Positions 979 to 12,247 of a DNA stretch of 64,000 nucleotides are shown here, piece by piece; position 1 is the stretch's first letter; each line of letters starts with the position of its first letter. Origin of the DNA: an uncultured Collinsella sp. (GTDB lineage Bacteria > Actinomycetota > Coriobacteriia > Coriobacteriales > Coriobacteriaceae). The DNA lies in the NCBI GenBank assembly GCA_905205405.1, contig CAJLDK010000001.1:35392-99391 (forward strand), read 5' to 3'. Under the pieces are notes generated by a model, which worked only from the letters and a program-made list of their open reading frames with translations, ran no database searches and was not told the DNA's origin. The position numbers and the translations under genes are program-made.

Positions 979-1185
979 TTATCCACTAATAAAATCTGAC
1001 ATGGGACAACATCTAAGGCAAATGCCACATTCGCGGCATTTGTCACCATCAACAATAGGAACAACATACCCATATTTGTCACATGTAGGTTCAATGGCGT
1101 TGAACGGGCACGCCGCTCCACAACACAAACAACCACAACAGAGAGAACTTTCTATTACTACTTCCACAGTCTGCTTATATTCCAT
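979..1185 (-). CDS. Small 4Fe-4S dicluster ferredoxin-domain protein (68 aa)
   Basis: Two Cys clusters are present (CCGCLCCGAACP and CRECGICLRCCP). Its start overlaps the upstream stop as TAATG, so it is translationally coupled to the FrhB-like gene. Confidence 0.6.
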   Translation of the reverse strand: MEYKQTVEVVIESSLCCGCLCCGAACPFNAIEPTCDKYGYVVPIVDGDKCRECGICLRCCPMSDFISG

Positions 1186-2225
1186 TATCCCTTCCTCACG
1201 ATTCTCTTAATTGAACCATAAAGATCAGAAGGTAGTAGCTGTTTTGCAAGACGTTTAACAGTCAACCTTGGCTTAAGGGTAGTATCAAACAACGCCTCAA
1301 GATCTCCATAAGACCTATGGTTGGCAATCGCGCAAAGCAGATCGTCCCTCGATGTTGGCCTAACTGTCGGGCTATTCAAATTATGGTTTTCTCTAGAGGC
1401 AAGCTGTATATTGGAAACAACATATTTGCATTCCCTAGAAGAATACTGCTTGAAAAACTGCACCCCTTTCAAGCTGTTAACCAAGAGCAGAGAAACACCA
1501 TTCGGGTCGTAAAAATCAGGATGAGCAGACTCAATACCCCAGTAATCTCCTATCGTAAAGTCAGTTACACGCTCGCGCTTGGAAAACGGGCATTTATAGC
1601 ATGACTCTCTGTACGTCTCTCCCCTGAGAAAGGCTGCATAATATGGATCATTATCGCCCGGCTCACATACCTCTATTTTTTTACCGTTCCTGTAGTAGTA
1701 GTAATAGTAGTAGAGACCCCAGCCTTTTTTCTTCGTACGAAAACGAAATGAATGGATTCCGTCATCCGCTTTTTGCTTACGCGCCAACCAGAGCTGATGA
1801 GCCCGAAATAGCTCATTATTAGGGGCACCATGACAGATAAGGTCACAGAGCAGCAATCGCTTAAGAAGAGAATCTGAATGCAACTTCAACTGAACGTACG
1901 CCAACACGGCAGCGCACTGACACGGAAGCCCGACAAACATAACAAGCCGGTCTGATTTCAAGCACTCAACCACGGAATCAAATATGCAAGAGATGTCACT
2001 TTGAACATAGGCGCTGCCCTGCAAACTAGCAATCTCCTGAAGCGTTTCTGCCTTTTCATGAGCGACAAATCCTCCATCCTGCATTTTTGCCCCGAAGACG
2101 ATACCGCCCATTGCAATAATCGGTCGCGCCAGGACAGAGAAAGCTCCTCCAGAAGCGGCGCGCTGAAGTGATACTTCATCCCGATCTTTAATAGCATAAA
2201 CAGCAAGGGGCTCATGAAATTCCAT
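1185..2225 (-). CDS. Coenzyme F420 hydrogenase/dehydrogenase beta-subunit-like (FrhB/FdhB family) protein, of the type found in polysaccharide loci
   Basis: 346 aa with FrhB-like Cys motifs (LPCQCAAV, CDLICHG). ATG start with an AGGAGG SD. Adjacent to a pyruvyl transferase, which is a recurrent pairing in capsule loci. Confidence 0.6.
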   Translation of the reverse strand: MEFHEPLAVYAIKDRDEVSLQRAASGGAFSVLARPIIAMGGIVFGAKMQDGGFVAHEKAETLQEIASLQGSAYVQSDISCIFDSVVECLKSDRLVMFVGLPCQCAAVLAYVQLKLHSDSLLKRLLLCDLICHGAPNNELFRAHQLWLARKQKADDGIHSFRFRTKKKGWGLYYYYYYYRNGKKIEVCEPGDNDPYYAAFLRGETYRESCYKCPFSKRERVTDFTIGDYWGIESAHPDFYDPNGVSLLLVNSLKGVQFFKQYSSRECKYVVSNIQLASRENHNLNSPTVRPTSRDDLLCAIANHRSYGDLEALFDTTLKPRLTVKRLAKQLLPSDLYGSIKRIVRKG

Positions 2226-2228
2226 TAA

Positions 2229-3650
2229 CTACCTCCTAGATACTTTCAAAAAGACTGCCGATAAGAGCGTAGAGATTCTAGATCTGTACAACATAAAAGT
2301 ACCGAATATAGAGAATACGAGGCTCAAAGCATTTAAATCAAATGACCCAGAGAAATAAGCTGCAGAACATACAATCAAAAGCACTGCTGGAAGAAGGAAC
2401 GAACGAAGCTCAACAAAAATCCCAATTCTCTTTTCAAGAATTGCGCATCGAATGACAATGTTCAATATGAAAGAAATTAAAACCGATAAATTTGAGCCAA
2501 AGCAGCCAAAATATTCAGTTAAGGGATATACGAGAATGCCATTCGCAATACATGAAATGACCATCGATACGCCAATAGTCTTTGTATCCTTGATGACATA
2601 AAAAATGTTTCCAATGAATGTAGAGACCGCACTCACAACCGCAACCCAAAGAAACGAAGGCACGACAGAATATGCAGCTGAATATGACGAACCCACAAGG
2701 ATAGGAAATGCGAGAGAGATCACCGGAAGAAGAACAGCTGTACTCGACAAAAGAAATCCGGTGTATTGTGAAATTGCACGAGAATAAAATGAAGCGGGCT
2801 TAATTTCACTCGTAAAAGCGACATCCTGCCAGGCAAGTGTAAAACAAGTCGTCGCCAATGCAACCGTCGATCCAAATTTTGAACCAATCGCAAAGACGCC
2901 ATTTGCTGAAAGTGAAAGCACCGTCGATACTGCAACGCGACTCAAACTTGTAAGAAACCAGTAAGCAACAGAGTTAATACCCAACGGGGCAGAATAAATG
3001 AACAAATCACGCACTTGGTTTGAATCTGGTTTATGAATATGATTCCACATTTCCATACGGCAAAATAGATACACGCATTGAATCGTAAAACCCGCCGCGT
3101 ACGAAATATATAAAGATTCATAACCCAAATGAAGGAGCAGAATCAAAAAAAGGTTCAGGCCCACATTGAGCAAAGTGCAAAGAACACCCGAAATGGCAAA
3201 ATCAACATTATTCCCCTTGCCTCTGGCAATACCGGAAAACATTGACTGGCAGTTAGTTGTCACTCCATAAATCAAAATCAAACCGAGCGACGGGATATCA
3301 ATGAACAGAGAGAGGCCGAGGGCAATTAATATGTACAAGATGGTAGAAACAGCAAAAATAACCCAACCAGATGCAATTACTTTCCAGGGTGCCTCGCCCT
3401 CTAGATCGTCACGCATCATACGCATGACACTTGACCAGATATCACAGTACAAAAACGAGGTCAGTAGAGTGGCGTATGTAATCGACAAGTCATAGTAGCC
3501 ATAGTCCTGAGTTGGAAGCACATTTGTGTAGAGAGGAATTAGCAATAGGGTAATTATTTTACTCATCGAGCTACCCACAAAAAAGATACCGGTCGATTTT
3601 GCAAACGAAAGGAATCCAGAACTCTTGCTATTAACTAAGGTATCTCCCAA
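2229..3650 (-). CDS. wzx: Oligosaccharide flippase Wzx (MOP superfamily polysaccharide biosynthesis protein)
   Basis: 473 aa with ~12 predicted TM helices and a Wzx-like N-terminus (KIITLLLIPLYTNVL). Probable TTG start. Lies within the low-GC locus. Confidence 0.8.
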   Translation of the reverse strand: MGDTLVNSKSSGFLSFAKSTGIFFVGSSMSKIITLLLIPLYTNVLPTQDYGYYDLSITYATLLTSFLYCDIWSSVMRMMRDDLEGEAPWKVIASGWVIFAVSTILYILIALGLSLFIDIPSLGLILIYGVTTNCQSMFSGIARGKGNNVDFAISGVLCTLLNVGLNLFLILLLHLGYESLYISYAAGFTIQCVYLFCRMEMWNHIHKPDSNQVRDLFIYSAPLGINSVAYWFLTSLSRVAVSTVLSLSANGVFAIGSKFGSTVALATTCFTLAWQDVAFTSEIKPASFYSRAISQYTGFLLSSTAVLLPVISLAFPILVGSSYSAAYSVVPSFLWVAVVSAVSTFIGNIFYVIKDTKTIGVSMVISCIANGILVYPLTEYFGCFGSNLSVLISFILNIVIRCAILEKRIGIFVELRSFLLPAVLLIVCSAAYFSGSFDLNALSLVFSIFGTFMLYRSRISTLLSAVFLKVSRR

Positions 3651-3652
3651 AT

Positions 3653-4780
3653 CTACAACGCCTCCTCAAGGAATGCGATGCTCTTTTTCCGCATCTCATC
3701 CAATTTCTCGGTAGCATACTCGAAGTCAATTTGGCGCTCATACATGGCAATGTCCTGTTGTGAAGCCAACATCCGATCCTCCGTGCCAGTCAGCGCAAGA
3801 ACACTCGCAATGCGAGTGCTAAAGCGTTCAGGTGCAATGGCGGTAAACGGAATTCCAAAATTCAAAGAATACGCTGTCGCATGAAAAGAGTCAGTAATCA
3901 CATATGAAGCATTGAGAAATAGACCAACAAACTCCTCAACAGACGGGGCGATGAGTGTCTTGGCAGATTTCATGACATCATAAATGCCGTATGAGATTTT
4001 AACTACATTCAAACCATACTTCTTTGCGACCGCCTCGACGTAGTCAACGAATGCCTTGCTCTTGTTAAGTTGATATACAAGTAAATAAGGGCCATCAATT
4101 CCCTCGGGCATCTTGGCAATGGATTCCCAATCATGCTTATTAAGCATGAGGGTTGGGTCCAAGACCAGCTGCGCATCGCTGAATCCTAAATCATTTAAAA
4201 TCCCAATTCCAGATGATTCACGCATGGAAATAGCCTTGTATTGCGATAAAGCCTCCTTCATCAAAGGCTTCTCCCAATCATCAACTTCATTTCTTCCGAT
4301 GCTTGCGGCAAAAGAAATACGCGGTTTCCCTTCCGGTGCAAACGTAAGATAGAAAGGCTTTTCGAAGCCATTGTTCCAAACACTATTCCAAACCTGATCA
4401 GAACCGGTGCAATATACATCCGCTACAGGGGGATAAAGTTCGAGCTCATCGGCAGAGCGATACATACGCTTAGAAAGGTGAAGATACTTAGACCTAAAAT
4501 CATCAAACGGTTTCCTTTGACGCTTAACGATCGCACCCATAGGAACAGAGAGCAAACGCTTCAACCAAGGAGCCCTATCCCAAACACCTTGAAACTTCTG
4601 CATTCTTCTACCCATAAATGCTTTCTCAACTGCATACTCAGGCAGATTATCTGCTCGATAGTAATCAATAACCTCAACTTCCCATCCGAGCGATTCAAAT
4701 AGTTTTTGAGTCGCAAAGGTTTGCAAGCAGGACCCGTAATTTGAAACGGTGTGCAGGGTAATCAAAGCAACTTTTGACAT
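3653..4780 (-). CDS. Polysaccharide pyruvyl transferase family protein (WcaK/CsaB-like)
   Basis: 375 aa. N-terminus MSKVALITLHTVSNYGSCLQTFAT is typical of pyruvyl transferases. ATG start with an AAAGGA SD. Confidence 0.8.
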   Translation of the reverse strand: MSKVALITLHTVSNYGSCLQTFATQKLFESLGWEVEVIDYYRADNLPEYAVEKAFMGRRMQKFQGVWDRAPWLKRLLSVPMGAIVKRQRKPFDDFRSKYLHLSKRMYRSADELELYPPVADVYCTGSDQVWNSVWNNGFEKPFYLTFAPEGKPRISFAASIGRNEVDDWEKPLMKEALSQYKAISMRESSGIGILNDLGFSDAQLVLDPTLMLNKHDWESIAKMPEGIDGPYLLVYQLNKSKAFVDYVEAVAKKYGLNVVKISYGIYDVMKSAKTLIAPSVEEFVGLFLNASYVITDSFHATAYSLNFGIPFTAIAPERFSTRIASVLALTGTEDRMLASQQDIAMYERQIDFEYATEKLDEMRKKSIAFLEEAL

Positions 4781-4783
4781 AAA

Positions 4784-5746
4784 TTATCCTTTCTTAGCAA
4801 GATAAACAGCTTTGTAAACAGGCCTCGCAAAACAATATGTAATAGCCTGTATTTTTTTGAAGCCAGGAATATCCTCATTCCGGATAACGCTTCCGAGAAA
4901 ACGTTTTGGCTCCTTTAGAACAACATTTGCGATTTCATTCGGCATTTCGAGGTCTCTTACGGCAAACGCATTGTAAACAGCGACCTGAGAAAAAAAGCAC
5001 GAAGTCTCAGCGACATTAATCAAAGCAGGCACATGCCTGCGGATATATTCGAGCTGTTCATGGGATGCCTCGATTGGAAACACGTTAACACTAGAACTTC
5101 TCGATATACTTCCTTCTCTATGCCGATAGTAATATAACGGCCTATCCTCATAATAAGAACAATTTGATCTTAAAATTAAGCGATAGCACATGAATTGATC
5201 TTCGGAGTTCTTGCCTTCCGGAAACGCCAGGCCTTTAAATAAGCTGGCAAGAAATAACTTTCCGTTCATTGACATATCAAAGGAACGGTACGAGTTTAGA
5301 GCTCGAGCAGCCTCAATCGGCCCAAGGCGTTTACTTGTAAAAGCCGGACGAATTTCATGGCTAGACTGTCCACCGCAATCGATATATCGCCCAGAAATGG
5401 AAATATCGGCATTAAACTCATTGGCATTTGAATACATAACAGATAAATAGTCGGAATCAATGTAGTCATCTGAATCAACAAAAGCGATATACATACCATT
5501 CGCCGCAGCAACTCCAGTATTGCGCGCGCCAGCAAGACCCCTATTCGCTTGGTCAATAATCCGAATACGCGAATCCTTTTTCGCATAATCAGCAAGAATC
5601 CCTCGCGATCTGTCCGTAGAACCATCGTTCACCGCTATTACTTCAAAATCGGCATAGCTTTGCGCAAGAACACTATCTAAACAATCAGGCAAATAATCCT
5701 CAACATTATAGACAGGGATTATCAAACTTATATTAGGAGATCTCAT
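4784..5746 (-). CDS. Family 2 glycosyltransferase
   Basis: ISLIIPVYNVEDYLPDCLDSVLAQSYADFEVIAVNDGSTD...DSDD, the GT-A DxD signature. Confidence 0.85.
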   Translation of the reverse strand: MRSPNISLIIPVYNVEDYLPDCLDSVLAQSYADFEVIAVNDGSTDRSRGILADYAKKDSRIRIIDQANRGLAGARNTGVAAANGMYIAFVDSDDYIDSDYLSVMYSNANEFNADISISGRYIDCGGQSSHEIRPAFTSKRLGPIEAARALNSYRSFDMSMNGKLFLASLFKGLAFPEGKNSEDQFMCYRLILRSNCSYYEDRPLYYYRHREGSISRSSSVNVFPIEASHEQLEYIRRHVPALINVAETSCFFSQVAVYNAFAVRDLEMPNEIANVVLKEPKRFLGSVIRNEDIPGFKKIQAITYCFARPVYKAVYLAKKG

Positions 5747-6858
5747 AAGGAGCCTTTCATTAATATGGAGTGATATGGGACGACGTTATTGCCATTCCAC
5801 ATCCCGATTGTGATAGCGATATACACGATATATAGAACAACAATCACCAACTGAATCAGGAACTTCAATTTGATATTCGATATCGAGTCGATTGCCAGAG
5901 GCAAAAGAATTACAGAAGGCAGAGAAAAAACCCAGCGTAAACGCTGAGAAAGCGGAATCAGACCGGATAAGATTGCAATTGATGTCGCAACAAGCTGGCA
6001 CCAGAGAAGAATACGATAGCGTTCGGAATAAGCACCGCCATACAGCTTAGGTACAATCGCGGAAAATAATAGGACCACGACATTCAACGCGATAACGACA
6101 TTCCCGCTTTCGCCCGTATCAAAGATGGATCCGATATAGCCAGCGTATTGAGTTTTGGCAATGATGGTATTAACGAAAGATGCAATGGGGACCTTAAGAA
6201 GTAAAAATCCCGACACCAAAACCAAACAAATGCATGGAGTAATTTTAAGACGCGGAAAATAGTATGCAGCGATAAATACAAGCGAACTTGAGTGAAACGT
6301 GCTCGCTATCGCAACGCAGACCGCAAATTTTACCGGATCTCTCTCCTCTATATAACGAAGCGAAAACAACAAAATGGAAACCGCAAGCATCTGCCTCATG
6401 GCGTTCATGTAGATAAACAAATAAGACATCCCAAATAGGAGGAAGACGGATAATGCGGGATGAGAAGATTCACGCATAATGGCAGCATATGTCAACGCGA
6501 AAAATGCTACAGAACATACCAGGAATACGGGCAGAGGGTTATCTGTAAAACGAGCGACAAGGTAATTGAGGGCGTAATAGCCGATTTCCATTTCCTGGAA
6601 CCCCAAACCCGAACGCACACGATAGAAGTAAGGCACGTAAGTATAAAAATAATCTTGCCCAACACCATAACGAAAGCCAGTAAGAATAATGAAAACAAGT
6701 GCGGAGGCGACAACGCCCCAGCGCGAATAATCTCGTCCGTCGCGGGCAGAGATTGCAGACCGGGATGTCGCCGCCACTGAGTTCAAAGGTCTCTGAGCTA
6801 GTAGCATAAAACCAACCGCAAGCAGAAGGCTAATCCAGTATGGAGCCAATAGACTCAA
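5743..6858 (-). CDS. wzy: EpsG-family polysaccharide polymerase (Wzy-like)
   Basis: 371 aa polytopic membrane protein with an EpsG-like composition. TTG start at 6858, or alternatively Met at 6807. Overlaps the GT2 start by ATGA. Confidence 0.6.
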   Translation of the reverse strand: MSLLAPYWISLLLAVGFMLLAQRPLNSVAATSRSAISARDGRDYSRWGVVASALVFIILTGFRYGVGQDYFYTYVPYFYRVRSGLGFQEMEIGYYALNYLVARFTDNPLPVFLVCSVAFFALTYAAIMRESSHPALSVFLLFGMSYLFIYMNAMRQMLAVSILLFSLRYIEERDPVKFAVCVAIASTFHSSSLVFIAAYYFPRLKITPCICLVLVSGFLLLKVPIASFVNTIIAKTQYAGYIGSIFDTGESGNVVIALNVVVLLFSAIVPKLYGGAYSERYRILLWCQLVATSIAILSGLIPLSQRLRWVFSLPSVILLPLAIDSISNIKLKFLIQLVIVVLYIVYIAITIGMWNGNNVVPYHSILMKGSL

Positions 6859-7954
6859 ACCTCCCTGTAGCAGCAGCCAAATAAAAATCCGTCATCTTTT
6901 TCGTGTTATCCCTAAAATCAAAACCGTGAATAGCGGCGCAATCTGCATAGGCTCTACGATTGATGCACGATGATGCGCCAACGATTTGTTGTGCCCAGGC
7001 AACGGGCCCAGCATTCAAATCTAAAAACTCTGTAATATCAGAAATGACAACTTCTTTCGTAATCTCAGAGGAAAAATAGCTCGGTAAACCGCTGCATTGC
7101 GCCTCAATTCCCACCAAGGGAAGACCCTCGAACAGGGAGGGCAAAACAAATGCATCCATAGCTGAATAGTAGGCCTGGGGCTCATCAGTAACAGATTGGA
7201 AGATAACCTTGCCATTCAGCCCTTTACTAGAAACGAGATTTCGTATCGAGCCCTCAAGTTCGCCGGTACCCACCAGCAATAGACAGCTATCTGGTTTCAA
7301 CCGAACAATCTCTTCAAAAATCTCAATCAAAAACTGATGATTTTTCTGCAAATTAAAGCGACCCATATGACCAACCAACAATTGTCCCGGAACAATCCCC
7401 AAGCTGCGCCTAATACGATCGCGATCATCTTGATTAAATGAAAACCGCTCAGAATCAATTGCATTCTTAGCTAAATAGAATTGTCTATCGCCAAAAAGAT
7501 ATTTGCCCGCTTCTGTAGAACACGCAAGGCGAATATTCGCGTGAATTCCAGCAGTCTTAAAGAGCAGTTTTTTTGTATACCCCTTTGGTGTTCGAAGATA
7601 GGAAGCTCCGTGGCTATGTGCTATGCGGGCACGTACGCCAGCATTCTCGGCAGCAAACAGATAAAGACCCGCAAGACTCGCGGCATGGCCATGAACCACA
7701 TCCCATTTGTTTCCAGAGTACAACCTCTTTAGCTCGTGCCAATAAGAGATAACATTCTTATTATCCAAAACAGGCAAACGATAAATACGGCCTCCAAGCT
7801 CCTCTATCTCATCATCGAAGAACCCTCGTGAATTGTGATGGACTAGAAAGTCAAAATGCACAGTATCGCGATCAATAATTCGATACATATTCATGATGTA
7901 GTTTTCAATACCGCCAGAATTCATATCTGGAACAGCATGAAGGACTTTAATCAT
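6830..7954 (-). CDS. Family 4 glycosyltransferase (GT-B, GT1/GT4)
   Basis: MIKVLHAVPDMNSGGIENYI...EGLPLVGIEAQCSGLP. Start at 7954 with an AGGAGGAG SD. The ORF track extends the start to 7990. Confidence 0.85.
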   Translation of the reverse strand: MIKVLHAVPDMNSGGIENYIMNMYRIIDRDTVHFDFLVHHNSRGFFDDEIEELGGRIYRLPVLDNKNVISYWHELKRLYSGNKWDVVHGHAASLAGLYLFAAENAGVRARIAHSHGASYLRTPKGYTKKLLFKTAGIHANIRLACSTEAGKYLFGDRQFYLAKNAIDSERFSFNQDDRDRIRRSLGIVPGQLLVGHMGRFNLQKNHQFLIEIFEEIVRLKPDSCLLLVGTGELEGSIRNLVSSKGLNGKVIFQSVTDEPQAYYSAMDAFVLPSLFEGLPLVGIEAQCSGLPSYFSSEITKEVVISDITEFLDLNAGPVAWAQQIVGASSCINRRAYADCAAIHGFDFRDNTKKMTDFYLAAATGRFESIGSILD

Positions 7955-8777
7955 CGCTCCTCCTGAGCATATTCGTATATACAAACCCACGCAGGCAATT
8001 GGGCATCAGGCAAACAATCAGTTGGGGCAAAAAGGAAATCAGGAAATCTGCTACCGTAAAATAACCAATACGCAACTGAGCAGATTTGAACTTCCAAACA
8101 TGAGCCAAATAACCCAGGCCTCCGCGCCTCTCATAAAAATCAGGACTAACTCTCATGGCCACAAGCGTTTCGTGAAGATTCTCAGCTCGGCAACCAGCTG
8201 CAAGCATTCGATTAAATAAATCCCAATCTTCGAAATACAGATACTCGGAACTGTAATTGCCCGCTTTCAACACCTTTGATCGTTTGAATGTCATTGGCGG
8301 ATGACGAAATGGATTTCTACGCTTTGAACAAGCAATAATATTGTTGAGACCTTCGGGGAGATCCGTTCGTGCAATCGGCTTGTCAGGAGACTCGACGAAT
8401 TCAATTACTTGGCTCCCAACCATATCAAGACCATCTTGAATCGCCTTTAGTTGTTTCTCCATACGATCAGAACGTGCAATATCGTCTGTATCCATACGTG
8501 CAACAATATCGTTAGCACAAGCAAGCATTCCCCTGTGTAACGCATAGCCAAGACCGTGGTTTTCCTCGTAGGCAATAAAACTAAAGATGCCAGGATAACG
8601 GCGGTCATACTCAGCCAGAACTGAATCGAGTTCTTTTGTTAACGGTCCATCCTTAACCATAACGATTTCCGCTGGTGGAATCGTCTGGTTAATAATGCTG
8701 TCCAAAGAAGCACGAAGATACGCAGGGTTCTCCTTAAGATAAATGCTCATGAGAACGCTATAAGCCTGAGAAGCCAT
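7947..8777 (-). CDS. Family 2 glycosyltransferase
   Basis: VLMSIYLKENPAYLRASLDSIINQT...VKDGP...DTDD. Confidence 0.85.
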   Translation of the reverse strand: MASQAYSVLMSIYLKENPAYLRASLDSIINQTIPPAEIVMVKDGPLTKELDSVLAEYDRRYPGIFSFIAYEENHGLGYALHRGMLACANDIVARMDTDDIARSDRMEKQLKAIQDGLDMVGSQVIEFVESPDKPIARTDLPEGLNNIIACSKRRNPFRHPPMTFKRSKVLKAGNYSSEYLYFEDWDLFNRMLAAGCRAENLHETLVAMRVSPDFYERRGGLGYLAHVWKFKSAQLRIGYFTVADFLISFLPQLIVCLMPNCLRGFVYTNMLRRSDD

Positions 8778-9464
8778 TTATCGCCCCGTCCTCTTCTTGC
8801 CGAACATGGCACCGAAGGTGCCGGTGAAGCACTTCAGGTCCATGCATAAACAGCGATTACGTACGTAATGAAGCTCAATCTTCTGTCGCAAGCCGCTCTC
8901 AAATGTCGCGGCGTTACGATCGGTGGCCTGCCACAGGCCCGTGATGCCGGGCTGGACAGAGAGCAGCTCTGCCTTCTCCTCGTCGGAAAAGTGCTGCTCG
9001 AGCTCATCCCTTGTAATGGGACGAGGTCCAATGACGGAAAGGTCGCCGTTCAGCACGTTCAAGAACTGCGGCATCTCGTCGATTGAGCACTTACGGATGA
9101 ATTGGCCGACTTTGGTAATGCGGGGGTCATCGTCGACCTTACGCTCGACTTCCCACTGATGCAGTTGCTCAGGGCTCAGATACTTCTGCACGTTGCCGGC
9201 ATCGGCGACCATGCTGCGAAGCTTAAGGATCTTGATAGTCTTACCACCCTTGCCAATGCGCTCTTGTGCATACATAGGGCTACCGGACGATTCAAGCCTA
9301 ATGAGTGCACACACCGCAGCAACAGGAATTAGCAGCAGAACACTCATCAAAAGACTGAACACAAGGTCAAACAGCCTCTTAACAATGCGATACCCAAGCG
9401 TGCCGCTCGGCTTTATCTGATCGAAAAGCAGTGCGTCCCCCATAGATGCACGGCTCTCTGTCAT
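8778..9464 (-). CDS. Polyprenyl-phosphate sugar phosphotransferase (Bac_transf family, PglC/WcaJ-C-like priming glycosyltransferase). The start is uncertain: the ORF is open to a GTG at 9527.
   Basis: RLFDLVFSLLMSVLLLIPVAAVCALIRLESSGSPMYAQERIGKGGKTIKILKLRSM...VIGPRPI is the canonical sugar-transferase core. A G10 tract lies at 9512-9521, just 5' of or inside the N-terminus. Confidence 0.8.
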   Translation of the reverse strand: MTESRASMGDALLFDQIKPSGTLGYRIVKRLFDLVFSLLMSVLLLIPVAAVCALIRLESSGSPMYAQERIGKGGKTIKILKLRSMVADAGNVQKYLSPEQLHQWEVERKVDDDPRITKVGQFIRKCSIDEMPQFLNVLNGDLSVIGPRPITRDELEQHFSDEEKAELLSVQPGITGLWQATDRNAATFESGLRQKIELHYVRNRCLCMDLKCFTGTFGAMFGKKRTGR

Positions 9465-9511
9465 TTCTTTATTAGCAGTCACGATAAAACTTACGTCCCT
9501 GTCCCCAGGAA

Positions 9512-9521
9512 CCCCCCCCCC
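9512..9521. repeat. Homopolymeric tract: C10 on the plus strand, G10 on the coding strand
   Basis: Positions 9512-9521 are ten consecutive C. They encode GGG GGG GGG if translation starts at the GTG at 9527; otherwise they lie in the 5' leader. Confidence 0.9.
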
Positions 9522-9567
9522 ATCCACGAATTCAAAAAACGAATGAATTGCCGGTGCAACGTCTCCC

Positions 9568-10158
9568 TTACGTTTTGATGGGAACGTCGAGCGGAAGCAC
9601 TTCCCTAAAGCTGGAATCGCCTTCGCCTACGTCCACCAAGCACCAGCGTTTACGACGGTCGATCTTGTGCACACGGGCCTCTTGCCCCACCAAGGGCCCC
9701 TGTTCTATGTGCAGCACACCGTCTTCTATGCGCGCCACGCTGTTGCGCACCACGTCGTCGTCGTCGAGCACGCTGCGGTACCAGTCCTGTGCATCGTCCG
9801 GCATGGGCGCATAGGCCCGCTCCCTGCTGCCAGCAATGCGGCAGCCAAAACTCAACTGGGCCAAAGCCCTATCGAGCGCAGCGGCATCGTGCGTGGCGAC
9901 GAAGAAGTATTCCTTGTACATGGGTTTGGTTTGGAGCGACCATGCGCCGTCCCGCTTAAACCAGAACTCCTTTTGCATCACAAAAGCGTTCTGCATCAGC
10001 TCGTGTGGGATAATACGGCGCACCTTTTCGCAGGTCTCGCGCTCTTTTCCATGGGGGGTGTGGACCAGATACCAGCGGACGCGGCCGTGCTGGCTGTTGG
10101 TGGTAACGCCGTTAAATGCGCCCGGCAGCTGCTCTTGGCGCCGTGCCATCTGTTCCAT
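9568..10158 (-). CDS. NusG-paralog transcription antiterminator (UpxY/LoaP-like) heading the polysaccharide locus
   Basis: NGN-like N-terminus (VRWYLVHTPHGKERETCEKV) and a C-terminal KOW-like region (HIEQGPLVGQEARVHKID). ATG at 10158 with an AGAGGGGG SD. The ORF track extends it to 10275. Confidence 0.65.
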   Translation of the reverse strand: MEQMARRQEQLPGAFNGVTTNSQHGRVRWYLVHTPHGKERETCEKVRRIIPHELMQNAFVMQKEFWFKRDGAWSLQTKPMYKEYFFVATHDAAALDRALAQLSFGCRIAGSRERAYAPMPDDAQDWYRSVLDDDDVVRNSVARIEDGVLHIEQGPLVGQEARVHKIDRRKRWCLVDVGEGDSSFREVLPLDVPIKT

Positions 10159-10245
10159 GTTTTCGCCCCCTCTTTTGGCTTTGCGATGCACGCAAATGCA
10201 GGGGCGTTTAGAACAGGCTTCTCGCTCGCAGCTAGGCGCAGTCGC

Positions 10246-10376
10246 AAAAGTACAGGTTTTTGTATCTTTCGACAAACGACATTATACGGGCAATTAATCA
10301 GCGTTTGCCCAGATTACGCAAAATGTACTGCAAGTAGGTACATCTCCATACCCCTCTACAAAAACCTGTACCTTTT
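10246..10376 (-). promoter_or_regulatory. Promoter region of the polysaccharide operon, bracketed by a 15-bp perfect inverted repeat (GTACAGGTTTTTGTA)
   Basis: A -10 TATAAT (plus attata, 10281-10286) reads toward the NusG paralog. IR copies at 10250-10264 and 10357-10371 are extended by A4 flanks. Confidence 0.5.
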
Positions 10377-10383
10377 TGTGCAA

Positions 10384-10412
10384 CAAAAAAAGCCGCTCAA
10401 CCAGCGGCTTTT
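10384..10412 (-). terminator. Rho-independent terminator (second of a tandem pair) downstream of thrS; bidirectional
   Basis: AGCCGCT-caacc-AGCGGCT stem flanked by an A7 run and TTTTCTT. Confidence 0.6.
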
Positions 10413-10420
10413 CTTATTTG

Positions 10421-10459
10421 GGCAAAAAAAATGCGACCGCCCTTTGTGAACGGTCGCCT
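10421..10459 (-). terminator. Rho-independent terminator of thrS
   Basis: GGCGACCG-N11-CGGTCGC followed by T8 on the minus strand. Confidence 0.7.
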
Positions 10460-10483
10460 TTGTTAATTGTTGTGAAGTTTGCC

Positions 10484-12247
10484 TTAGGCGCGAGTCTTGA
10501 TCTCCTCGGTCACCTTCGCAACAAACTCATCAACGCTCATCTGAACGGTCTCGTTGGAACGATCGCGGACGGAGATGTTGCCGGCCTCGACCTCCTTCTC
10601 GCCCAGGATGAGCATGTAGGGCACGCGGTCGATGCTGCGGGCCTCGCGGATCTTGTAACCGATCTTCTCGTCGCGGTCGTCGCAGACCACGCGAATGCCG
10701 GCCTCCTCCAGCTTGGCGCACACCTCGTGGGCGTAGTCGCGACTCTTCTCGGAGACGGGAAGCGCCTTGACCTGCACGGGAGCCAGCCAGGTGGGGAACT
10801 TGCCCGCAAAGTGCTCAATCAGAATACCGATAAAGCGCTCGATGGATCCAAAGCACACGCGATGCAGCATGATGGGGCGCTTCTTGGTGCCGTCAGCGTC
10901 CACGTACTCCAGGTCAAAGTTGAGCGGCATCTGGAAGTCGAGCTGGACGGTGCCGCACTGCCAGGTACGGCCGAGCGAGTCCTCCAGGTGGAAGTCGATC
11001 TTGGGGCCGTAGAAGGCGCCGTCGCCCTCGTTGACCTCGTAGTCCATGCCCAGCTTCTCCAGAGCGGTGCGCAGGCCCTCCTCGGCGCGAGCCCAGTCCT
11101 CGTCCGAACCCATGGAGTCCTCGGGGCGGGTGGAAAGCTCAACGTGGTACTTAAAGCCAAACTTCTGGTACACGGAGTCGATGAGGTTGACCACGCCCAC
11201 GATCTCGTCGGTCAGCTGGTCGGGACGCACAAACAGGTGGGCGTCGTCCTGGTTAAAGCAGCGCACGCGGAACAGGCCGTGCAGGGCACCGCGCAGCTCG
11301 TGGCGGTGCACCAGGCCAATCTCGCCGGCGCGGATGGGCAGCTCGCGATAGGAGTGCGGCTTGGAAGCGTACACCAGCACGCCACCCGGGCAGTTCATAG
11401 GCTTAATGCAGTACTCTTCGTCGTCGATGACGGTGGAGTACATGTTGTCCTTGTAGTGGTCCCAGTGGCCCGAGGTCTTCCACAGCTGTTTGTTCATGAT
11501 GAGCGGCGTGGAGATCTCCACGTAGCCGGCCTTGTGGTGGATCTCGCGCCAGTAGTCCAGCAGCGTGTTCTTAAGGATCATGCCGTTGGGCAGGAAGAAC
11601 GGGAAGCCGGGGGCCTCGTCGCGCATCATAAAGAGGTCCATCTCGCGGCCGATCTTGCGGTGGTCGCGCTTCTTGGCCTCCTCCAGCATGTGCATGTGCT
11701 CGTCGAGCTCTTCCTTGGTGGCAAAGGCGACGCCGTTGATGCGGGTAAGCATCTTGTTGTCCTTGTCGCCCTTCCAGTAAGCGCCCGAGACGCCGGTGAG
11801 CTTAAAGGCCTTCAGAGCCTTGGTGTAGCAGATGTGGGGGCCGACGCACATGTCGATGTAGTCGCCCTGCTGGTAGAAGGTAATGCGGGCATCGTCGTCC
11901 AGGTCGCCGATATGCTCGACCTTGTACTTCTCGCCGCGCTCCTCCATAAGGGCGATGGCCTCGGCGCGGGGCTTCTCGTACACGGAAAACTTGAGGTTCT
12001 CCTTGACGATCTTCTTCATCTCGGCCTCGATCGCGGGGAAGTCGTCCTCGCTGATCTTAACGCCCTCGGGCAGGTCGACGTCGTAGTAAAAGCCGTTGTC
12101 GGTCGCGGGGCCGTAGGCAAAGTCGGCCTGGGGGTACAAGCGCTTGATGGCCTGCGCCATGATGTGTGCGGCGGAGTGGCGGATGACGTGCGTGACCTCG
12201 TCCTGCGGGAGCTCGGCCACCGAACCGTCATTGTAGAGTGCCTTCAT
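10484..12247 (-). CDS. thrS: Threonine--tRNA ligase
   Basis: 587 aa. ...HRDLKPEN-free class II aaRS with a TGS/editing N-terminus and HxxxH and SGxxER motifs, including the typical ThrRS sequence MILGEKEVEAGNISVRDR. Confidence 0.95.
   Translation of the reverse strand: MKALYNDGSVAELPQDEVTHVIRHSAAHIMAQAIKRLYPQADFAYGPATDNGFYYDVDLPEGVKISEDDFPAIEAEMKKIVKENLKFSVYEKPRAEAIALMEERGEKYKVEHIGDLDDDARITFYQQGDYIDMCVGPHICYTKALKAFKLTGVSGAYWKGDKDNKMLTRINGVAFATKEELDEHMHMLEEAKKRDHRKIGREMDLFMMRDEAPGFPFFLPNGMILKNTLLDYWREIHHKAGYVEISTPLIMNKQLWKTSGHWDHYKDNMYSTVIDDEEYCIKPMNCPGGVLVYASKPHSYRELPIRAGEIGLVHRHELRGALHGLFRVRCFNQDDAHLFVRPDQLTDEIVGVVNLIDSVYQKFGFKYHVELSTRPEDSMGSDEDWARAEEGLRTALEKLGMDYEVNEGDGAFYGPKIDFHLEDSLGRTWQCGTVQLDFQMPLNFDLEYVDADGTKKRPIMLHRVCFGSIERFIGILIEHFAGKFPTWLAPVQVKALPVSEKSRDYAHEVCAKLEEAGIRVVCDDRDEKIGYKIREARSIDRVPYMLILGEKEVEAGNISVRDRSNETVQMSVDEFVAKVTEEIKTRA

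Follow-up and report, generated by a model that had tools for sequence, protein, structure and literature searches.

A homopolymeric G tract at the head of a Collinsella polysaccharide locus was confirmed, by comparison of related sequences, as a slipped-strand mutational hot spot. The stretch analysed, hereafter the window, comprises 64,000 nucleotides (nt) of Collinsella aerofaciens-group DNA from the human gut, and coordinates are window positions throughout. The coding strand of all local genes is the minus strand, on which the tract reads G10 and lies between the gene of a LoaP-like protein and that of a priming phosphoglycosyl transferase. The tract is thus linked to a surface determinant, the priming transferase of a low-G+C polysaccharide cluster. 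We consider the chances evenly balanced that this is a hypermutable non-coding tract in a capsule or exopolysaccharide leader, with its length tuning the transferase at leader level. It would plausibly be an expression dial rather than a frameshift switch. The elements concerned, with protein lengths in amino acids (aa), are listed in the direction of the coding strand.

9568 to 10158, minus strand: LoaP-like specialised NusG paralog, 196 aa, first gene of a putative operon
9483 to 9567, minus strand: conserved 85-nt leader that separates the loaP-like gene from the transferase gene and holds the tract and both hairpins
9548 to 9559, minus strand: small hairpin UUGC-ACCG-GCAA just after the loaP stop codon, read from sequences of relatives
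9512 to 9521, minus strand: G10 homopolymeric tract (C10 on the plus strand), read from sequence, a +1 allele relative to the modal G9 of relatives
9495 to 9512, minus strand: 7-bp hairpin GUUCCUG-GGGA-CAGGGAC directly 3' of the tract, the last tract G forming the closing pair
9483 to 9494, minus strand: 12-nt linker GUAAGUUUUAUC from the hairpin to the start codon, without a canonical Shine-Dalgarno sequence
8778 to 9482, minus strand: priming phosphoglycosyl transferase, 234 aa, small and monotopic with a WbaP-like catalytic domain, start revised to GTG 9482-9480

Length variation of the leader G tract

The tract begins 46 nt past the stop codon of the loaP-like gene and ends 29 nt before the transferase GTG start. 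A first-pass annotation of this DNA had reported C10 at 9512-9521, that is G10 on the coding strand, and had called a run of this length rare. Both statements hold for the window sequence, in which the tract is the sole run of G or C longer than 6. Under a first-order Markov model, the expected number of runs of at least 10 in the window is ~0.05 for C and ~0.05 for G. Ten residues also lie within the range, 7-8 nt or more, in which slippage is expected.

Relatives were gathered by exact-protein look-ups, one metagenome pattern scan and one genome scan, and 116 related Collinsella loci served as the main comparison set for the leader and the start codon. Nearly all loci are short-read consensus assemblies, most of them from metagenomes and some at 3-8x coverage. 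In the genome scan, a relative of the LoaP-like gene was found in more than 521 GTDB species representatives, the best 80 of which all belong to Collinsella or Coriobacteriaceae. The same leader followed the LoaP stop codon in all 116 related loci, though the downstream transferase and glycosyltransferase genes differ.

Tract length varied widely among loci of the window's own type. With the window itself counted (n = 35), we found G7 in 3 loci, G8 in 5, G9 in 15, G10 in 9, G11 in 1 and G12 in 2, giving a mode of G9. A sister type with a TTCATAGAT flank ranged from G6 to G11, with one additional G21, and had the same mode. The length of the repeat changed between close strains while the flanks stayed constant: it differed in 21 of 27 pairs with at most 2 differences in 1450 nt of flanking sequence, and even pairs with no flank difference over that distance carried G7 vs G9 or G12 vs G10. 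Seven contigs encoding a LoaP identical to that of the window had tracts of 9, 10, 11, 8, 7, 8 and 10 residues.

As a control, all other homopolymers of 5-7 nt in the same loci were invariant except for one T6-to-T7 change. Lineages carrying G5 followed by A showed zero variation across 28 loci. An interrupted G4CG4 in a diverged leader was the same in 8 of 8 contigs, and its uninterrupted homologue read G10, G10 and G9. That long runs vary whilst short or interrupted ones stay fixed is as slipped-strand mispairing during replication predicts. The first-pass annotation had proposed such mispairing and had suggested a check across several isolates; that check, carried out here, revealed tract-length heterogeneity (G7-G12 in the window type), and the length alleles, the near-identical pairs and the invariant controls together establish the tract as the predicted hot spot.

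Homopolymer errors of short-read assembly might produce length differences of this kind, given that most loci are metagenomic, some at only 3-8x, and that Illumina chemistry is weak at G tracts (PMC9187656). The lone G21 (locus L011) could be such an error. Some of the differences amount to 2-5 nt, however, and isolate assemblies and high-coverage contigs also vary, with G7 at 22x, G10 at 138x and G9 at 47x and 73x. Other homopolymers are stable in the same contigs and the short or interrupted versions of the tract are fully stable. With variation present in isolates and in contigs of 22-138x, assembly error is therefore unlikely as a general explanation, and we regard it as the most improbable of the alternatives considered. 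Several metagenome contigs (L109, at a contig end, L023 and L056) stop at the G tract or no more than a few bases from it, as would be seen if assembly broke at a heterogeneous homopolymer or where conserved and variable parts of the locus meet.

Long runs have arisen more than once. Runs of at least 8 occurred in several leader sub-lineages (types A, B and D, and loci L043, L085, L092 and L113), and their flanks show that these long-run sub-lineages descend from short-run ancestors. Long runs were also present in two diverged LoaP-transferase leaders, one with a LoaP 62% identical to that of the window (L121, G9) and one at 45% (L118-L120, G10 or G9). In 777 kb of related DNA, 72 of the 89 G or C runs of at least 7 were the leader tract. 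The remaining 17 gathered at a few fixed positions of the polysaccharide loci and were mostly G on the sense strand, where a count of G and C runs gave 17 G vs 4 C.

A neutral origin is a serious rival to a tuning role. Under this explanation, a G4-G5 leader motif has grown by slippage in some lineages and drifts around an equilibrium of about G9-G10 with no effect on expression. It would account for the stable G5-A or G4CG4 found at the same place in many lineages, for the G9-10 mode that other G runs of these loci share whatever their position, for leader folding without length dependence (described below) and for the occurrence of all three length-modulo-3 classes with no obvious constraint. 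Neutral drift sits less well with the near-absence of long G runs elsewhere (1 in 64 kb of window, and the 17 non-leader runs at few fixed sites in 777 kb). It also sits poorly with their repeated origin at one site and in two diverged leaders, nearly always as sense-strand G, and long unstable tracts are usually purged unless selected. We consider the neutral explanation unlikely, though it deserves to be taken seriously.

Placement of the transferase start codon

From a comparison of more than 130 related Collinsella loci, we placed the start of the transferase at GTG 9482-9480, predicting a 234-aa protein and a tract that lies in its 5' leader. A GTG or TTG located 28-31 nt past the tract (window 9482-9480) opens an in-frame transferase open reading frame (ORF) in 109 of the 116 loci. 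The N-terminal peptide that follows, (V/L)(A/T)(A/S/T)(N)KE(V/M/A)T..., is common to two transferase types of 233-234 aa and 249-250 aa, which differ by a 3-nt indel. Variability by codon position, measured as entropy, was 0.63, 0.41 and 0.82. The catalytic domain begins at residue 30 of the 234-aa protein, and the Pfam domain starts at residue 50 of the long ORF opened by GTG 9527. With the start at GTG 9482, the tract is non-coding; it falls outside the ORF and its lengths ignore reading frame, unlike an intragenic phase-variation tract.

Gene callers prefer ATG 9443, a start that we rejected: the ORF, the N-terminal peptide, the 3-nt indel and the codon-position variability all extend to GTG 9482. 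Depending on tract length, these callers give the transferase as 221, 247 or 249 aa. The first-pass annotation had pointed to start-like codons at GTG 9527-9525, ATG 9464 and ATG 9443, all of which are present as described. A further ATG at 9523-9521, which it had not listed, takes the first G of the tract. Its suggestion that the tract forms codons 3-5 of a protein begun at GTG 9527 does not survive comparison, in which relatives have ATA, ACC, ATC or GTC at the position of that GTG; its alternative start at ATG 9464 is lost in the same way, to GTA, GTG or GCA. We rejected any coding placement from GTG 9527 or ATG 9523, codons and frame not being conserved.

Classical translational phase variation would require translation from GTG 9527, in frame at G7, G10 and G13, or from ATG 9523, in frame at G8 and G11, with frameshifts switching the transferase on and off. 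In a variant of this mechanism, tract length would set where a short upstream ORF stops relative to the real start. An ATG or TTG is indeed made with the first tract G in 75 of 81 loci, and some gene callers fuse the ORF at G8 (247-aa calls in L147 and L149). An upstream TTG of L121, preceded by GGAAAG, is in frame through its G9, and related loci do have a second G tract within codons, which encode the C-terminus of the leading member of a tandem transferase pair. These points are set against the lack of conservation of GTG 9527 noted above and the lack of a Shine-Dalgarno sequence before either GTG 9527 or ATG 9523. The modal G9 is moreover out of frame for both codons, so that most strains would be 'off'. 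The downstream GTG/TTG start, by contrast, is conserved with its N-terminal peptide, and the catalytic domain follows from residue 30. As for an upstream ORF, its start-like codon is near-universal but its frame and stop position are not conserved, with 42, 28 and 11 loci distributed across the three frames. We accordingly rejected a conserved upstream ORF with translational coupling, and frameshift control of the transferase as a whole appears very unlikely.

Leader hairpins and the proposed role of the tract

The hairpin directly 3' of the tract is a conserved feature of the leader. It folds in 43 of 43 distinct variants, with loops of GGGA, GGGAA, GAAU, UAAU or AAGA. Covariation was assessed on a structure-aware alignment of 57 distinct sequences with 500 shuffles. 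Paired cells made up 89.5% of the hairpin alignment, compared with 30-52% in slid-partner controls, and compensatory double changes occurred at 4 of the 7 pairs. The covariation score was 0.241 vs 0.144 in shuffles, and none of the 500 shuffles scored as high. These compensatory changes argue that the region functions as RNA. The small hairpin just after the loaP stop codon likewise keeps its stem, as read from the sequences, whilst its loop varies (ACCG, GCCG, ACUG or ACUA). We regard it as a possible recognition site of the LoaP-like protein, with a loop other than UNCG.

The equivalent of the tract hairpin in L121 has the arms UCCUCC and GGAGGA, the latter forming a perfect Shine-Dalgarno sequence that precedes the called TTG start by 7 nt. 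This suggests a link of the hairpin module to translation initiation, or ribosome binding.

Several other structural roles were considered for the leader and set aside. The tract hairpin was flagged as terminator-like by a scan, with 5 non-U residues between the stem and a short non-conserved U run; a canonical intrinsic terminator appears unlikely, the U tract being poor and not conserved. A G-quadruplex was rejected on inspection of the sequences, the fourth G block being GGA in many relatives. We also rejected a competing hairpin in which the G run would pair with the pyrimidine arm and free the Shine-Dalgarno-like arm; in ViennaRNA the tract hairpin was present at lengths 3-15 for both the window and L121 types. 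An Rfam search returned no match for the leader, and at E-values up to 1 it gave only terminator look-alikes after thrS.

A DNA-level rheostat would instead make the region a promoter. The tract would then lie at or just upstream of the -35 of an internal promoter with TAAGTT (9493-9488) as its -10, giving a near-leaderless mRNA, and its length would alter the spacing or helical phase between an AT-rich upstream element (TTTTTTGAATTC) and the core promoter. H. pylori sabA and meningococcal nadA provide precedents (PMC4081817, PMC2791445). In leader types A, B, C and D, a TAnnnT hexamer does precede the GTG/TTG start by 5 nt, that start has no canonical Shine-Dalgarno sequence, and a conserved AT-rich block places TTGAAT 8 nt upstream of the tract. 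However, TAnnnT becomes TGGATT, TGAGTT or TGAATT in a large group of relatives, no -35-like hexamer accompanies it, and a consensus scan of 9300-10600 found no sigma-70-like -35/-10 pair. TTGAAT is at least 35 nt from any TAnnnT, so the arrangement also departs from promoter spacers of the porA, opc, fim or hif type. Furthermore, the would-be spacer covaries as a hairpin, which argues for a function as RNA. Promoter control by the tract is thus quite unlikely. The first-pass annotation had offered leader or promoter as alternatives to a coding position: the leader stands, with the start codon downstream, and the promoter-spacer role falls with the missing -35/-10 pair.

If tract length does tune the transferase, the region would be transcribed from a promoter upstream of loaP and length changes would act at leader level. 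This could occur through translation initiation beside the hairpin, or through LoaP-dependent pausing and read-through. In either case the enzyme of the first committed step in polysaccharide synthesis would be tuned in a graded manner, as for the poly-G upstream of Moraxella uspA1. The site of the tract, 29 nt ahead of the start and next to the conserved hairpin, is compatible with such an effect.

Several observations weigh against this tuning role. Many lineages keep a stable G5, showing that a long tract is not required for function, and mutational equilibrium, as opposed to selection, might be behind the strong mode at G9. In loci of the window type, 13 nt separate the Shine-Dalgarno-like arm of the hairpin from the start, more than a standard Shine-Dalgarno sequence allows. 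The fold of the whole leader is not unusually stable (z = -1.3). In nearest-neighbour folding with ViennaRNA, the hairpin formed at all tract lengths from 3 to 15, which leaves no simple structural read-out of tract length. Finally, consensus assemblies mask heterogeneity within populations, and G runs are somewhat error-prone.

A broader model is possible but somewhat doubtful. Here tract and hairpin would form a length-tunable leader module that sets, per cell lineage, the share of LoaP-licensed transcript turned into priming transferase, as one part of a Collinsella 'phasome' of sense-strand poly-G tracts in capsule loci. The proposed fixed sites of this phasome are the loaP ribosome-binding site (RBS), the loaP-transferase leader, the tandem-transferase junction and the RBSs of later genes. 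We propose that it would resemble the Bacteroides invertible promoters and UpxY/UpxZ in purpose and differ from them in mechanism.

The polysaccharide locus and related systems

The surroundings of the leader contain these further features.

10484 to 12247, minus strand: thrS, upstream of the locus
10385 to 10457, minus strand: two terminator-like hairpins with T runs after thrS, from a terminator scan and sequence reading
10281 to 10286, minus strand: candidate -10 element, a perfect TATAAT that precedes the loaP start by about 120 nt, read from sequence
1185 to 8777, minus strand: rest of the low-G+C cluster (GT2, GT4/GT1, EpsG-type polymerase, GT2, pyruvyl transferase, Wzx-type flippase and FrhB-like protein), by Pfam, with labels drawn from identical gene arrays

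Between about 2 and 8 kb of the window, the polysaccharide genes have 42-45% G+C compared with ~60% elsewhere and are variable in content, in keeping with the low-G+C locus described in the first-pass annotation. Its naming of the transferase was also correct. The catalytic domain matched Bac_transf (PF02397) over its full length, at positions 1-178 of 179 (E 1e-52), and the protein also matched NCBIfam EPS/WbaP sugar-transferase models. In the PDB it matched WbaP (E 2e-41) and PglC (E 4e-22), with alignment from residue 30. For the LoaP-like protein, the best model was NCBIfam NF033641 (antiterm_LoaP; E 1.2e-24, positions 1-147 of 166), at 87 bits, below the curated cut-off of 125. UpxY (E 4e-5) and NusG (E 0.07) models matched less well, the NusG-family PDB chain 8f5g matched residues 28-174 (E 0.012), and a Pfam search gave no match.

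The hairpins after thrS probably shield the locus from upstream transcription, and TATAAT at 10286-10281 is a candidate operon promoter element, as read from the sequence. About 60 nt further upstream stands a 7-bp inverted repeat, AGGTACA...TGTACCT (10330-10375, minus strand), whose spacer holds GAGGGG in the window and a G9 run in L011 (512-520). In the putative 5' untranslated region of loaP, a 6-bp hairpin UUUGCG-UGCAU-CGCAAA (10200-10178, minus strand) lies about 10 nt before the RBS. In a diverged locus type (L125-L132; for example L125, 654-1259), a serine recombinase gene (PF00239, Resolvase) is found directly upstream of the LoaP-like gene, a position that hints at an invertible-promoter layer; the leader G run of these loci is interrupted (GGGGCGGGG) and invariant. 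In L010 (3883-5304), the loaP-like gene is missing together with the G tract and most of the hairpin, and an insertion sequence (IS) element with an rve-family transposase stands there instead. Sequence homologous to the window restarts 9 nt before the GTG start, and the cluster is in a different chromosomal context.

Other G runs were observed in related loci. A second sense-strand G tract (G7, G9 or G10) lies about +818 nt past the LoaP stop codon in L042, L047, L053, L060, L064 and L093 (for example L093, 4406-4415). It lies among the final codons of the leading gene in a tandem transferase pair and is followed by its own hairpin, UGCCU-GCUAG-AGGCA. At G7 or G10 the first gene stops 4 nt before the ATG of the second, and at G9 the stop comes about 60 nt earlier; this tract is a possible frameshift or translational-coupling switch. 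L084 (about 3700-3760) has lost the first transferase through a deletion that fuses GTGGGGG, around codon 13 of that gene, with the +818 tract, as would fit recombination or slippage between G runs. At the codon-13 run, L047 carries G6 rather than G5, which shifts the frame. The RBS of the loaP-like gene, ~-600 nt from the LoaP stop codon, is a G7-G9 run (AAAG-Gn-CGAGAAC-ATG) in L022, L027, L032, L041, L068 and L098, whilst the window equivalent (about 10165-10172, minus strand, GAGGGGGCG) has G5 only. At about +5556 nt past the LoaP stop codon, L013, L014, L030 and L035 have a G9 or G10 run at the RBS position (Gn-AA(A)TAACAA-ATG) of a later polysaccharide gene, one not present in the cluster type of the window.

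Among known systems, the closest in function is uspA1 of Moraxella catarrhalis, where an upstream G(n) gives graded high or low mRNA without frameshift (PMC7302503). In each case a non-coding G(n) tract of 8-12 nt precedes the ORF of a surface factor, and its length varies between strains and, in uspA1, also within strains. They differ in that uspA1 belongs to a Gram-negative gammaproteobacterium, of another phylum, and encodes an adhesin instead of heading a polysaccharide operon, with no adjacent conserved hairpin or NusG-paralog gene described there; an expression effect has been demonstrated for uspA1. Lafontaine et al. 2001 reportedly placed the uspA1 tract past the transcription start and ~30 nt short of the start codon, a geometry that would equal that of the Collinsella leader.

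The poly-C of Neisseria meningitidis siaD and the poly-G tracts of Campylobacter jejuni capsule and lipooligosaccharide (LOS) genes are phase-variable. Like the Collinsella tract, they are G/C runs of 8-12 nt that undergo slipped-strand mispairing and belong to surface-polysaccharide loci. Bayliss et al. 2012 are said to have found a mode near G9-G10 for C. jejuni tracts, arising from opposing insertion and deletion biases. These tracts are intra-ORF and act by frameshift, in contrast to a Collinsella tract outside the ORF. In Bifidobacterium breve, another gut actinobacterium with variable G tracts, G11 and G12 alleles of a sortase-pilus tract coexist in single-colony-derived cultures and shift in vivo, and the authors mention more G tracts in promoter spacers (PMC9187656). 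Those tracts are coding and in pilus genes, however, and the organism belongs to the Bifidobacteriales rather than the Coriobacteriia.

In layout, the Collinsella leader resembles LoaP and UpxY systems. The Bacillus velezensis dfn leader needs a UNCG hairpin and a NusA-dependent terminator for LoaP action (PMC12691694), and Bacteroides UpxY uses ops-like sites with pause hairpins, combined with invertible promoters (PMC11685472). As in these, a putative specialised NusG paralog is encoded by the first gene of a long biosynthetic or capsule operon, and the leader contains a small RNA hairpin that is conserved. Unlike the Bacillus system, neither Collinsella hairpin has a UNCG loop (GGGA, GGGAA, GAAU, UAAU or AAGA beside the tract; ACCG, GCCG or ACUG in the small hairpin), the U tract is poor, and the protein scores below the LoaP model cut-off. 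Phase switching in Bacteroides relies on promoter inversion instead of a simple sequence repeat. A further parallel is pyrG attenuation in Bacillus subtilis, where according to Meng, Turnbough and Switzer 2004 G's are reportedly added by reiterative transcription at the RNA 5' end and pair with a terminator arm. Both cases involve about 10 G in RNA beside a hairpin with a pyrimidine-rich 5' arm (UUCCU or UCCUCC in Collinsella). In Collinsella, however, the genome itself encodes the G's, which run directly into the arm, and no competition is predicted by folding.

Our literature search found nothing on Collinsella phase variation or polysaccharide loci. Homopolymeric contingency tracts of surface-polysaccharide loci are a known kind of element, here found in a new taxon. 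Where this one lies is unusual: in an untranslated leader past a NusG-paralog gene and fused to a conserved hairpin. The analysis also corrects the start codon of the transferase and flags a site at which assemblies and gene calls are unstable.

The genus Collinsella is highly prevalent in the gut, among the commonest human gut Actinobacteria, and has been linked to several diseases. To our knowledge, its surface biology is essentially unstudied. If the tract tunes the priming transferase, strains that look alike in metagenomes would differ in capsule output, and phage sensitivity, immune recognition and colonisation would be affected. Gut commensals would then have a repeat-based route to capsule heterogeneity beside the invertons of Bacteroides.

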